A DNA stretch of 61,983 nt, the filler included, from Globobulimina sp. (Eukaryota): assembly GCA_003354225.1 (NCBI GenBank). It is 24 parts of 24 records of this genome, joined end to end, with 100 filler letters (N's around TTAATTAATTAA, not from the genome) between each part and the next. Parts side by side here need not be neighbours in the genome. Positions count along the whole stretch, not along the records: positions 59,499 to 61,983 come from PIVH01006401.1; 23 more parts are not named here. One strand, written 5' to 3'. Each line of letters starts with the position of its first letter. Position 1 is the stretch's first letter. A model generated the notes under the pieces. It was not told the origin of the DNA, did not search any database, and saw only the letters and a list, made by a program, of their open reading frames with translations. A program made the translations under genes and the position numbers. Of the stretch, positions 41,886-61,983 are shown piece after piece.

Positions 41886-43883
41886 AGTGGCTGTTGGTTG
41901 GGCTTAAATGACCAAAAAGACACTCGAGTCTACGAATGGACTGATGGCACGGCATGGGATTACGGCACAGTGTTGAACGAATATCCATGGTATATCTCAG
42001 AGCCAGGCTCAGCCTCCTCGCAGTTATGCATTTTCTTAGACCCTTCCAACGGCGCAGACCCAGGCGAGTATTTAATGGATGATTATTGGTGCGAACGTAC
42101 CAAACCTCGCCCACTCTGCAACGCGCCGAGCGAAATCTGTGCGCCTCAACAATGGAACGTCATTCGTGGCAGTCCCAATGGCTGGACCTGGACGCAAAAA
42201 CCTTGCGGTGTCGCCAAAACCGTCCAGGAAGCAGAGAGTGTCGCCCTTTTGGGCGATAAACAATATTTAAACACTGCCGGTTTGTACATACACTGTATAT
42301 TTCCGCTGGAAATTATAACCTATAACACTGAAAAAGGCGTATTAACCATCGACATGATGTACAGCATCACGTCATTGGGCGCATACGGCAACGCCGGGCT
42401 TGCTCTGTATTTCGACACAACCGATTGCGACAATTACTATTATATCGGTATATGGGGCGAATACTCAATGATGTTCATCGGCAAATATGTCAACAACGTT
42501 TGGAGTCTGATCCAGCACGCTCTCATTGCCCCCGCTTATGTGCTCAATGTGCCCTATTCATTACGTATCGAATTGACCGCCGGTACCGAATGGAATATAT
42601 TACTAAACTCGCAACCATTGATCGCAGTGTCCGACAATGAGTTTTCTAACGCAAATAATAAATTATCCGGCTACGTTGCACTACGAAATGTAAACGCGAT
42701 GTTCGACGTAAAATCGTTATACATCTCTGGCGAGGTACAACACGACGATACCACCAATAATTGGTGGCGACAATGCACCAACGCACCTACGGCGGCGCCG
42801 ACATTGTCCACTCTAAATCCGTCAGTGGCGCCCACCGGTTTTCCTACCTTGGAACCCACATTGACGCCGTCAGCCGCACCCACTGCAGACACCAACTCGC
42901 CGTCGACCTCACCCACCCAATTACCGTCGACGTCGCCCACCGTCGAACCCACCTTTTTGCCGTCCACCTCACCTACAATGGAGCCGACCTATTTGCCCAC
43001 ATTGGAGCCGACAGTGACGAGTCGATCGCCCAGCGACTCTCCGACACTTTTCCCCTCTGAGGTACCTACTGTTTCTCCCTCCAATAATCCGACAGTTGAA
43101 CCAACAGTGCATGTTGCAACGAATAATCCCTCTCTGAATCCGACAAATGAACCGACCGCAGAACCTACACATCAGGTTAAAAATCCCTATTCCATGTTCA
43201 CCAATCCCTATTTGAACTCGCTTTTGTATGACTAAATAATAAATATGTCATTGATGCTTATTATTTCGTCATAAAAGTGTCCCCAAAAACTTTCTAGTCA
43301 GCTCAGTAATGTTCGAATGACGCTTTGCTGATTGTTGACGTTCGTGAACTGAACATGGAATATTTGTTATGCGACTTGTTGTGTATATTCTATTCTGTTA
43401 ACTAAGCCGACCAATTCGCCCACCAATGAGCCCTCGCATTCTCCAGTCACCGCCAATCCCACCATAAGCACCGTGGTCGATGTCAACATCACTGATCATG
43501 TGATCCAAGTATATGAAGAAAGCATCGTAGTGACAGAGCGACGAAGTCAGATGATTTGGATCGTTGGCATACCGATAGGACTCGTAATGTTTTGCTTTTT
43601 TGGTGTATATTTGCTGTATAATTACTGCAAACAAACTAGAGAGAATTTTAAAAATAAAAATGTCTGCGTTGATGATGCAAGCCTTCGCAAACAAAGTAGA
43701 TCCAATTCAATCCGGTTAGAAACCGAAGAGCCGGAGGAGGCTGACATTGCTTTACAAGTGACGCAAAGTGAGGCATTTGAGCAGGAGGAGGAAAATGAAG
43801 AACATAATTTGTTGCAAGTTACCACTCCAAATGGGGTAGGTATTGATGATGAAAGTGGCGCATTACATGACCCTATTCATACG
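41886..43883 (+). CDS. C-type lectin domain plus beta-sandwich, Pro/Thr (TxxP) stalk and TM; intron 43176-43406
   Basis: WVGLND...YEWTDGT.WDY...W...EP...C...MDDYWC...C; about 35 TxxP repeats; TM IWIVGIPIGLVMFCFFGVYLL. Confidence 0.8.
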
Positions 43884-49155: not shown

Positions 49156-50330
49156 ATTTTATTTTTCAATTTTTTATTTTGTCGGATTTGTTTATGTATC
49201 ATATTAAGTAATCTGTAGCATAAAACTTTTGCAGGTTTGCGTAACTGTGCCCAATGCATCATTTTCCCGCAAATCGATTCTAACGCATGTCCTGAAGCAT
49301 AGCGATATTGAATCACTAAATGTAATGCTTTTACCAATTCCTTAAATTTATGGTTTGGTATGAAAACATGTTTTGTAATTAAATCAAAACCAAAACCATG
49401 TACAACACCTTCTTGTATGGCATTTTCATCTTTTGCGTGAGATACATTTATTTTTAACTGATCACACATTGCATCAAATTTATCTGCCATTTCTTTTGCT
49501 TCCTCCTCACTGTTTGCTGCCAAAATGAAATCATCAATATGCACTAAAATCCGATTTCGTTGTTCAAAACTTAAATATTTGTGTTCTAAAATCCAAATTA
49601 AAATCTGTGCAAAGTGTTGACAATTTGCTGCAGCTGATGCTACGCCGTAAGCTTGCCTCAAATCCCTAAAACTGAGACCAAAGATACAATATTGTATATA
49701 TTTCGAGTCTGCTGAGGCAAGGTTTATTTGTCTGAAGGCGTCTTTTAAATCTCTCAAAGAAACATATTTATAATTCATTAAAAGCTCAATATATTGGCGT
49801 ATATTTGGTAAAGTTGGCATTTTGCATTTTTCTTTGTCAACCAATTCATTTATTGACACTGTTCGACGTGTACTATAAGATCCGTGTCTTGCAACACGTA
49901 TTTCTGTTAATAATTTTGTATCATTATTTCTTTTCGGTACACATAATAAATTAAGATTATAATGTAATGGTTTATGGGTGGTTGTTATATATGATTTTTG
50001 TGCCTCTTTTACCATTCGTGTTAATATTGCTTTTAATTCATTTTTATCTCTGACTATATTAGAAACGTGTTTCGATAATTTGGAGGGGTCACGATTTTTA
50101 AGCCATAAAGGGTATCCATCCTTGATCCAATTTATTTCTATTTCTCCGTCGGGATGGTCGCTTAAATAATCCGTGAATAAATTTATATTAAAGTGTTGTG
50201 GTATATTGGGTGGGTGTGCCCAAAGATCAGCTAATTTCTGGAGTAAATTAGCACAGTCCTTGTCTACTTTTGAGAGTATCGGAATATGTGATCCTGCATA
50301 TAAACGAAATGGAGACACATTATAAGACAA
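49156..50330 (-). CDS. Reverse transcriptase (DIRS-like), 3'-truncated
   Basis: DHPD...IKDGY, VPK, SINE, RDLKDAFRQI, YGVASA, VHIDDFIL, K...HGFGFD, LESICGKM. Confidence 0.88.
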
Positions 50331-50435
50331 CTGTTTCTATGATGGACAAATAACTAATTTTAAAAAATGGGAATCAATCAATTATTTAATTAAATCAAAA
50401 ACGAAATTAGTTGTCAATCAAATAAAAATTATTGT

Positions 50436-59235: not shown

Positions 59236-59575
59236 CTTTCTATTTTTTCTCGTTATTTAATATATGTGTCCCTGTTATAATGGGCTCTCTCTCCTAAATA
59301 TTTACATTAGTTTTAGCATTTATACATGCACAATTATATGAACATACTGCTACCACTCTTTCCCACCACTCCTGGTCCCATGGTCCACGAGTTACATTNN
59401 NNNNNNNNNNNNNNNNNNNNNNNNNNNNNNNNNNNNNNNNNNTTAATTAATTAANNNNNNNNNNNNNNNNNNNNNNNNNNNNNNNNNNNNNNNNNNNNAA
59501 AAAAAAAAAAAGGAAACTGAGACTGCAAACGACAAACAAGTTTTTTGATGTACAAGGAAAATCTTAAATTATCAA

Positions 59576-61238
59576 ATGACTTACACACTTGCACAGCAAT
59601 GGCTTTGTCTTACAGTTGTCTGTGCTGCGTTAATTACATCAATTCTATTCCCGTTCCTATATCCACGCTATCAGTCTGAAATGCAATCTTTTTTGCAGAA
59701 CAATGATAATAAAATAGTACCGTTGCATATTAAACATGAAACATATCCTAAACCGGCCGTAATAAACCATATTCACCACAGACATGAAGAGAGAAAGCGG
59801 CATCAGTCTCAATGCAAACCGTTACCTCCAAATATACAAAAGATACAGTCTTCTTTTTCATTATCTCTATCAGATTCAAATAATGATATTATGTCCAAGC
59901 CTCATATACCTTCATTATTATTAATAGCACCGCCAAAGTGCGGTACAACCACATTCATGAATACATTGTCAAGATATCCAAACATTGTGCAATTTGCTGA
60001 AGAGCATCATTATTGGAATCAAAAATGTAATATTAGCAATGTTCGCAGCCAACGAGGACTCTGGGAAACATTTGTGTGGGGTGTGCTCTGTCTGCTCTTT
60101 TGTGTGGGGTGGGCTCTGTCTGCTTTTGTGTGTGTCGTCTAACCTAAACTCTAAAAATATTTTTTTTCGTGATTGATTGACTCGAACATATGTGTAATCA
60201 CTTTATGACGCTCAGAGCCCACCCCACACAAAAGAGCAGACAGAGCCTACCCCAGACAAGAGCAGACAGAGCACACCCCACACAAATAAAACTAAGCTAT
60301 CATTTGTATTGGAAAATATATTGCAGATTGTTAGTAAGGCTATAAATAATAAATCATGTTCAATCAAACAGTACCAATTGGAATGGGAGCAGGCATCGAA
60401 AGTATTGGATAATGCGTCATGTTGGAAACACAAACAATGTAAGTTTCCAATGATTTATATTAATGAAACGGATACTAATTGGTATAATTACTGCTATTTG
60501 ATTGAGAAAGCGCCGTTTTACTCAAACTTTGCATGGATTCCTATAATTTATGCAAACTTATTACCTAAAGTTAAATTGTTGACTATTGTGAGGAATCCAG
60601 TCACGCACATTTTAAGTGCAGCATATGCGTATAAACCGATTGTGGATCGGCAGAATTTAATTGTTTTGGATAATTTGAGTGCTCATTGTCAAGCAATAAA
60701 TAATGAATGGAATGCATTGAAACATAAACAGCCAACAGAACGATATTGGACAATGAAGCATTCCTTTTATAAACCATTTATTATTCAGTTTATGCGAGAA
60801 AAGTATGCGTTGTTGCATATGAATGACAGTTTGCTTTATAGTTGGTCGGCATTTGTATTTCCAACAATATTAATTGCAGTGTTTGCTTATGATGAAGTTG
60901 AACATATTAATTACAAAGTAATCCAATTTGAATGGATGTATTCCAATGATCAAAATATTGCAGAATTAATGAAATCAATTTATTGTTGGCTGATGAATGT
61001 AAATAATGAGCAGTGTAATAAGGCAATAAATAATGATCAAAATACCAAATTATTTGCAATGATTGGAAAATATAATCATGTCTCACCACCAACCAATGAT
61101 ACAAATTATTATAGTGACTATTATCAACATAAAATAAGCTCTTTGTTTGATTCATGCAACACAGCATTGTTAAATGTGTTGTATGATAAAAATTTAATGT
61201 TTGGTGACTGGATTTCTTGGAGCTACAGAAATACATAG
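59576..61238 (+). CDS. Golgi type II sulfotransferase (HS3ST/Sulfotransfer_1-like); predicted intron 60074-60296
   Basis: N-terminal TM; 5'-PSB LIAPPKCGTTT; EEHHYW; EKAPFY; 3'-PB KLLTIVRNPV..ILS. Confidence 0.85.
60070..60287. mobile_element. Foldback/MITE-like element with 30-bp perfect terminal inverted repeats and ~28-bp internal subrepeats
   Basis: 60070-60099 atttgtgtggggtgtgctctgtctgctctt is the exact reverse complement of 60258-60287; 2-3 tandem subunits per arm. Confidence 0.8.
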
Positions 61239-61296: not shown

Positions 61297-61983
61297 ATGG
61301 CACAGCATTTCAAATACAATAAAAAGCGATACAATTCATTTCGACAATATAATTCTCAGAGAAATTACAATCAAAACGATGATTATAAACGTAACTCTCA
61401 AGCAAAATGGATCAAAAAATCAGCCACAAATGAAATTAATAGCAAACAATATTATCGTCAGAAAGTATGGAGTTATATGGAGAACAATAATATCGCTCTA
61501 TTTCCGCGTCCGGTTTATCATAGAATACCAAATTTTATTGGTGCAGAAAAAGCAGCACTTCAACTATTAAAATTGGAATGTTTTATAAATGCCAAAATAG
61601 TGAAAGTAAATCCAGACAAACCACAAGAATATGTACGTTATTTATGTTTAAAAATGAACAAAAGATTATTAATTCCAACCCCTCGATTGAGTAATTATGC
61701 ATTGTTAAATGAAATTGTTATACCGTCAGATTTAAAAAACAATGCTAAAACATTGCAGATGGCAGCCACAAGAAAAGGGTTAACACAATTTGGACATTCA
61801 TTATCTTTGAATAATTTATTAAAATGGAACACAAATAATAACTTTAATAAGATTGACATTTGTATTGTAGGCTCGGTGGCCGTGGATAAAAAAAATGGAT
61901 ATCGTATTGGTAAAGGTGAAGGATATGCAGATATTGAGATAGCTATTCTGAATGAACTGGGATTAATTGATAAAAATACACAA
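61297..61983 (+). CDS. MTHFSD: Methenyltetrahydrofolate synthase domain-containing protein (5-FCL-like), 3'-truncated; missing from the ORF track
   Basis: RQKVWSYME...FPRPVYHRIPNFIGAEKAA...VKVNPDKPQ...PTPRL...IVGSVAVD..GYRIGKGEGYADIE. Confidence 0.9.
   Translation, partial: MAQHFKYNKKRYNSFRQYNSQRNYNQNDDYKRNSQAKWIKKSATNEINSKQYYRQKVWSYMENNNIALFPRPVYHRIPNFIGAEKAALQLLKLECFINAKIVKVNPDKPQEYVRYLCLKMNKRLLIPTPRLSNYALLNEIVIPSDLKNNAKTLQMAATRKGLTQFGHSLSLNNLLKWNTNNNFNKIDICIVGSVAVDKKNGYRIGKGEGYADIEIAILNELGLIDKNTQ

Follow-up and report, generated by a model that had tools for sequence, protein, structure and literature searches.

The window analysed here, a stretch of 61,983 bases from Globobulimina sp., consists of 24 separate contigs of 2,485-2,488 bases each, which are arranged in order of descending length and joined by N44-TTAATTAATTAA-N44 spacers. 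Since features on either side of a spacer cannot be linked, the true context of the foldback element described below is given by the last contig only (59499-61983, approximately 2.5 kb), and the remaining 23 contigs served as a sample of about 59 kb of the same AT-rich genome, with a GC content of about 0.27-0.44. The last contig starts with a run of 13 A residues (59499-59512). The assembly probably broke at this homopolymer, and hence the upstream region of the gene is absent. The contig carries two coding blocks on the plus strand, one on each side of the element, followed on the same strand by a neighbouring gene for a methenyltetrahydrofolate-synthase-domain protein (61297-61983; Pfam 5-FTHF_cyc-lig, 6.6e-20) that runs off the contig end. 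The best named relatives of its product are metazoan MTHFSD proteins with approximately 50% identity, and unnamed relatives are closer (69-77%). Elsewhere in the window, contig 20 contains an open reading frame on the minus strand (49158-50336) with a reverse-transcriptase domain (RVT_1, 1.8e-09). This retroelement fragment indicates that mobile elements exist in the genome sample.

The upstream coding block (59576-60073) extends from Met1 to Phe166 and, from the first methionine onward, shares 55% identity with residues 1-145 of P0001, a predicted protein of 468 amino acids with the source label eukprot that is the sole close homologue of the gene. Its N terminus carries a hydrophobic anchor, and the block also contains PPKCGTTTF, the PAPS-binding loop. 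The downstream block (60285-61238) begins with NKTKLSFVLENILQ, ends at the TAG stop codon at 61236-61238 and is 60% identical to P0001, with its NKTK aligned to NKTN of the homologue; the open frame from 60198 to the same TAG (61236-61238) likewise gives a 60% match. This block includes the 3′-phosphate-binding region RNPVTHILSAAY. P0001 lacks approximately 20 residues including the PAPS-binding loop (20 alignment columns, corresponding to CGTTTFMNTLSRYPNIVQFA at 59921-59983 in the window), which makes it an imperfect reference; the gap may stem from a mis-predicted intron in the gene model or may denote an inactive isoform.

When 1.84 billion representative proteins were searched with a profile, only 51 relatives were recovered at E <= 0.001 (P0001-P0051), 22 of them at <= 1e-10. 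This sulfotransferase family is thus very small, and it is divergent and uncharacterised; for most members no Pfam match exceeds the threshold. Its profile matches heparan-sulfate 3-O-sulfotransferase 1 (HS3ST1, 5.5e-11) and the NDST sulfotransferase domain (7.7e-09), and of the 26 members that were aligned, 12 show Pfam Sulfotransfer_3. The two gene halves in the window are themselves weak in Pfam, exon 2 alone giving E = 0.021. An AlphaFold2 model of the homologue P0002 (mean pLDDT 82.7) retrieved sulfotransferases as top Foldseek matches, with target-normalised TM scores of 0.56-0.60. The proposal that a sulfotransferase gene is interrupted at this site is backed by the family profile, by Sulfotransfer_3 and by the matches of the P0002 model, and membership in a PAPS-dependent sulfotransferase family with a 5′-phosphosulfate-binding loop, a 3′-phosphate-binding region and a predicted fold like that of heparan-sulfate 3-OST and NDST enzymes is supported. 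In the family, the PAPS loop is followed by a conserved helix of the pattern W-x-x-[FY]-[LIV]-x-x-[FYW]. A tblastn search of the window with all 51 family proteins for empty-site paralogues gave no match outside the last contig.

The element itself was previously described, in a sequence-only reading, as a perfect 30-bp inverted repeat built from tandem subunits of approximately 28 bp, with arms richer in GC than the other introns, and each of these features is directly observed. The left arm (60070-60134, 65 nt) begins with the 30-bp terminal inverted repeat (60070-60099), followed by the second unit and a partial unit of a 28-bp repeat that is present in 2.3 copies (60071-60134). The right arm (60213-60287, 75 nt) consists of three units of 20, 26 and 28 nt and ends in the exact reverse complement of the left terminus (60258-60287); its tandem unit measures 26-28 bp and recurs 2.7 times (60213-60286). 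In an offset register, 60085-60118 and 60213-60246 also pair over 34 bp without a mismatch. The arms enclose an AT-rich, non-repetitive central loop of 78 nt (60135-60212, GC 0.31), which carries every sense-strand stop codon of the element, whereas the GC content of the arms is 0.52 and 0.56 as compared with 0.32 for the remainder of the contig. The right arm exceeds the left one by 10 nt, its middle unit having diverged to 26 nt, and over their common region the arms differ by two mismatches and two indels, in addition to the 10-nt gap where the right arm is longer. Comparison within the window revealed no relation of the arms to the flanking sequence. The 28-mer has three matches, as opposed to none in 100 shuffles of the window, and no comparable inverted repeat occurs elsewhere in the 24 contigs, where the next longest perfect one within 700 nt measures 15 bp and is AT-rich.

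The base composition of the arms is strongly biased. The left arm contains 1 A, 9 C, 25 G and 30 T, with 13 GT and no AG dinucleotides, and the right arm contains 31 A, 29 C, 13 G and 2 T, with 13 AG and no GT. Neither arm has a stop codon on the sense strand, and the reverse complement is nearly alike, with 10 GT, 11 AG and a single stop within an arm. With a perfect 30-bp terminal inverted repeat, a length of 218 bp, no coding capacity and loop stops in all frames, the element corresponds to a TIR/MITE-type repeat, and its internally tandem-repeated arms flanking a unique middle domain correspond to a foldback transposon. Judged by its architecture, it is a miniature foldback element, and the same architecture suggests a mobile origin.

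Folding of the RNA from 60060 to 60310 gave a predicted free energy of -126.4 kcal/mol, as compared with -60.3 +/- 4.5 for shuffled sequences (z = -14.8). A long and nearly perfect stem of this kind could be a functional unit in its own right, namely a precursor of small RNAs (hpRNA or mirtron-like) residing within the gene, and it resembles the Rfam families MIR6224 (51.4 bits) and MIR5998 (46.7 bits). However, this likeness is one of structure only, and the scores lie far below the gathering thresholds of 171 and 180 bits, respectively. Moreover, both strands match the miRNA models, as would be the case for any long hairpin, and the score for SNORA23 (28.2 versus 45 bits) likewise does not indicate an H/ACA snoRNA, nor do the former indicate a miRNA precursor. 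We therefore give a hairpin-RNA function only the faintest chance. MITE-derived miRNA precursors such as MIR6224 and MIR5998 likewise form hairpins that are long, nearly perfect and about as large as the element, a likeness in structure only with scores under the thresholds.

The upstream reading frame continues into the element and terminates at a stop codon at 60140-60142. The sequence-only reading had proposed that the element is almost exactly a spliceable intron, extending from a GT at 60074 to an ACTAAG acceptor at 60296. In line with this proposal, the donor GT lies just inside the left repeat, and excision of 60074-60296 (223 nt) restores the frame to give WETF|LSFVLENILQ. The junction 60073/60297 is nevertheless not supported by homology, since the acceptor would remove NKTK (60285-60296), which aligns with NKTN of P0001 and with the family motif. 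Nor is the near-coincidence of element and intron special: with donors taken from 60040-60142 and acceptors from 60190-60330, a total of 108 GT/GC-AG pairs keep the frame open without a stop, a consequence of arms in which 13 GT and 13 AG are available and bases that could form stop codons are nearly absent. The variant in which the element entered the 5′ edge of an existing short intron has to be dropped as well, as the gap between the right repeat and the AG comprises just 9 nt and is coding by homology. Finally, the acceptor motif was said to be shared with an ordinary intron. AACTAAG does end at 43406, but the heptamer occurs four times in the window with 4.65 occurrences expected, and a motif at chance frequency lends the comparison no weight. 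That the ATTT...AAAT ends might mark a U12-type or AT-AC intron was also considered and was rejected on the consensus of such introns.

The candidate intron that ends at 43406 (43176-43406, contig 17) is an in-frame GT...AACTAAG segment of 231 nt, which is unusually long for this genome. It contains an exact 13-bp inverted repeat near its ends (43188-43200 and 43350-43362) and folds with z = -3.8 relative to shuffles. This may be another hairpin-closed intron, or it may be due to chance.

The position of the element within the gene was read from a MAFFT alignment of 19 of the 51 homologues, selected because their matched stretch reached the element region. All 19 contain an ungapped block of six residues, conforming in most to [LIV]xx[FYW]xx, which precedes the position of NKTK in the window; the W-x-x-[FYW] before the block is aromatic in 18 of 19. 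Examples of the block are LILYAS (P0001), LNMYLF, LARYAN and LTQFSF, and in the P0002 model it constitutes the C-terminal half of a confidently predicted helix (142-153). In the window the order is WETF, element, NKTKLS; thus, the element directly occupies the place of the six-residue block, and the block is missing. Furthermore, five homologues were placed independently by tblastn, and the starts of their alignments, at 60267-60291, all lie upstream of 60297. Given the homology of NKTK, the presence of the block in all 19 homologues and these alignment starts, 60285 is the most likely point at which the coding sequence resumes. The block is not recovered by any of the 108 GT/GC-AG pairs that preserve the frame, and the nearest ones leave STPHT or VTPHT or remove NKTK. 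A potential micro-exon in the loop (60198-60215), encoding SLYDAQ, has L, Y and A in common with the LILYAS block of P0001, yet it departs from the [LIV]xx[FYW] spacing of the family and a stop codon comes before it, so that we consider the resemblance a coincidence.

The absence of six expected codons exactly at the element, together with the highly fragmented assembly and its contigs of approximately 2.49 kb, could point to an artefact of assembly or amplification, either a fold-back chimera or a short-read mis-join at a repeat. In a fold-back chimera, adjacent genomic sequence is duplicated as a perfect inverted copy. In contrast, the arms are foreign to the flanks, differ from each other in unit number, by two substitutions and by indels, and enclose a unique loop. 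That the arms are foreign and mutually different excludes a simple fold-back chimera. In addition, the flanking frames are compatible with an insertion and a deletion that were both clean and a multiple of three in length. Sequencing adapters are presumably not the source of the palindrome either, as we see no resemblance to them. An artefact is accordingly very unlikely; unequal arms (65 versus 75 nt) that differ from one another and from the flanks speak for genuine repeat DNA.

The base of the stem coincides with the codons for Phe166 and Asn, and removal of 60074-60284 (211 nt) would be in frame and give WETF|NKTKLS. This raises the alternative that the element is removed at the stem base by non-canonical, hairpin-guided excision at the RNA or DNA level, which would join Phe166 to Asn. 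Introns of this kind are known in Fritillaria, Amoebophrya and euglenids, as described in the available part of a review (PMC11282704). However, the ends would be GT...CA, whereas the candidate ordinary introns of this genome appear to be GT-AG, and the product would still be devoid of the six-residue block. We regard such an excision as highly improbable.

An alternative of greater weight is that the inserted foldback element is an introner-like intron, which is spliced out by the spliceosome so that the gene remains functional with a slightly altered loop. The candidate pairs are 60074-60269, 60076-60271 and 60074-60296, the ends of which would be brought together by the RNA hairpin. The GT at 60074 is located exactly on the codon boundary after Phe166, and both halves of the open reading frame are intact. 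The 5′ arm offers 13 GT and the 3′ arm 13 AG (10 and 11 in the opposite orientation), and the arms are nearly free of stops, hence approximately one third of the GT-AG pairs preserve the frame. This is the composition expected of an intron-generating element that can be rescued by splicing in any frame or orientation. Precedents exist for hairpin-forming elements with inverted and direct repeats in Amoebophrya, as far as the available text of PMC7789003 goes, and the gain or loss of neighbouring codons is reported at introner sites in the accessible part of PMC9860276. Several observations are nevertheless at odds with an introner. No canonical pair gives back the conserved six-residue block, and relative to the intron-less homologues splicing would therefore not leave a near-intact coding sequence. 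The splice candidates within the arms, GT 60074 as well as the AGs at 60269 and 60271, are base-paired inside the very stable hairpin of -126 kcal/mol. Moreover, the element differs in both length and GC content from the other candidate introns in this genome, which are short and AT-rich: a search for joinable reading frames elsewhere in the window, albeit a noisy heuristic, suggested ordinary introns of approximately 45-70 nt with a GC content of 0.17-0.39 and GTAYGT or GTGAGT donors, which renders the element atypical as an intron. What defines introner families is that similar copies are numerous and have been shown to be spliced, and many of these families restore the mRNA exactly by means of a target-site duplication. 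At this locus we found neither further copies in the 23 other contigs nor a significant target-site duplication, and a comparison of the element peptide with longer proteins, which is a weak test, gave no match. On this evidence a spliced introner is unlikely, though it deserves serious consideration.

The search for copies in the other 23 contigs (approximately 59 kb) employed the 28-mer with up to three mismatches as well as blastn-short of the whole element, and neither revealed a further copy. Likewise, a 23-mer scan of prokaryote genome contigs yielded no match, and the weak test mentioned above, with a 44-residue open reading frame derived from the element, identified no candidate among longer proteins. 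As had been noted before, a clear target-site duplication is absent. AAAC (4 bp), for which the right boundary has to be moved by 1 nt, is the sole exact direct repeat, and repeats of at least 4 bp were obtained for 121 of 2000 random site pairs at a slop of 1 and for 667 of 2000 at a slop of 4. With approximately 6% to 33% of random pairs doing as well, this repeat is at chance level. At or near the element boundaries we observed no direct repeat longer than 4 bp, and thus no 8-10-bp duplication of the foldback type. A model in which all 218 bp (60070-60287) were inserted with an imperfect 5-bp duplication (GAAAC/AAAAC) into an empty site LWE-T-KLSF was ranked below the model with ancestral codons for F and NKT, because it requires a chance match of F, N and K to the family and the previous absence of ten residues; the 4-bp repeat is itself at chance level.

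The architecture is reminiscent of FB-like transposons (Drosophila FB, Tetris, Galileo and Tm1), which likewise have arms of tandem units, unequal unit numbers and a unique, non-coding middle. For Tetris, the available part of PMC4079207 describes long inverted repeats of tandem units with variable unit numbers and a Mutator-like target-site duplication of 8-10 bp; further foldback relatives are nematode Tm1 (PMC3169594) and Galileo (PMC3573991). In contrast to these, the present element measures approximately 215 bp rather than hundreds to thousands of bp and lacks an 8-10-bp duplication, so that the likeness is one of architecture. Introner families span 30-654 nt and 5 to more than 2,000 copies, and have terminal inverted repeats with or without a target-site duplication, according to the accessible sections of PMC9860276. 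Like the introners of Micromonas, Aureococcus and dinoflagellates, the element is short and non-autonomous, has terminal inverted repeats, lies in a coding region with a GT near its end and falls within 30-654 nt; unlike them, it is present once in 24 contigs, has no evident target-site duplication and is accompanied by the lack of six codons. Hairpin-forming introners are reviewed for Micromonas, Fritillaria and euglenids (PMC11282704, in the part available). As in the introner elements of Amoebophrya, the MITE-derived introns of Fritillaria borealis and euglenid introns, the inverted repeats at the ends can pair and thereby let the exon ends approach each other (available parts of PMC7789003 and PMC11282704). 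The repeats given in these excerpts are, however, 8-20 nt in Amoebophrya and 3 nt in euglenids, with direct repeats of 3-5 nt at the borders, whereas the stem described here comprises 30 perfect bp and more than 60 bp overall. Of the features of the Amoebophrya elements, the inverted repeat is thus present and a direct repeat at the borders is not above chance. In addition, relaxed splice-site rules are documented for the three lineages, while the candidate introns in the window are of the GT-AG type. In a full-text literature search no paper of the collection searched contained both the words foldback and introner, a result that bears on the co-occurrence of these words only.

Taken together, these results make it on balance probable that a foldback or MITE-like element was inserted into, and damaged, a coding exon of a Golgi-type sulfotransferase-family gene, and that the element is not an established intron. 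The inserted unit, a palindromic repeat that is non-coding, of the foldback type and about 211-218 bp long, would have entered the exon between Phe166 (TTT, 60071-60073) and Asn (AAT, 60285-60287). It most likely represents a DNA transposon of the non-autonomous kind, or else a copy of such a transposon captured in break repair. As the six-residue segment at the insertion site is present in all homologues, the event appears to have removed approximately 18 bp. Most simply, a single event would account for both changes, the gain of approximately 211 nt (60074-60284) and the loss of approximately 18 nt of coding sequence, and the last three bp of the 30-bp repeat would then reach into the TTT and AAT codons on either side by chance alone. 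Broken by the stop at 60140-60142, the frame would represent a null allele or a young pseudogene of a multi-member family. Any rescue of the transcript would have to proceed via cryptic GT-AG pairs in the arms and would not recreate the ancestral protein. The otherwise intact coding halves are consistent with a recent event, and the gene has presumably lost its function, but two flanking blocks free of stops and frameshifts suit equally well a gene that stays functional through splicing of the element.

As a single insertion, the element would likely harm one member of a small sulfotransferase family, and the value of the finding lies in local annotation: gene models should avoid the junction 60074/60296. 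A more far-reaching possibility, which we consider quite doubtful, is that this AT-rich genome with its short introns harbours foldback introners of a family not recognised before, which would be orientation-blind. With a 5′ arm devoid of A and a 3′ arm devoid of T, the arms would be free of stops in every frame and both orientations; owing to this and to GT donors and AG acceptors juxtaposed by the hairpin, the insertion of such an element into an exon would usually be survivable and would create a new intron with small gains or losses of codons. If further copies and splicing of the element were demonstrated, it would be another example of introns made by transposons, with a design principle in which stop-free arms provide donors and acceptors in both orientations, and intron gain would be directly testable in this organism.
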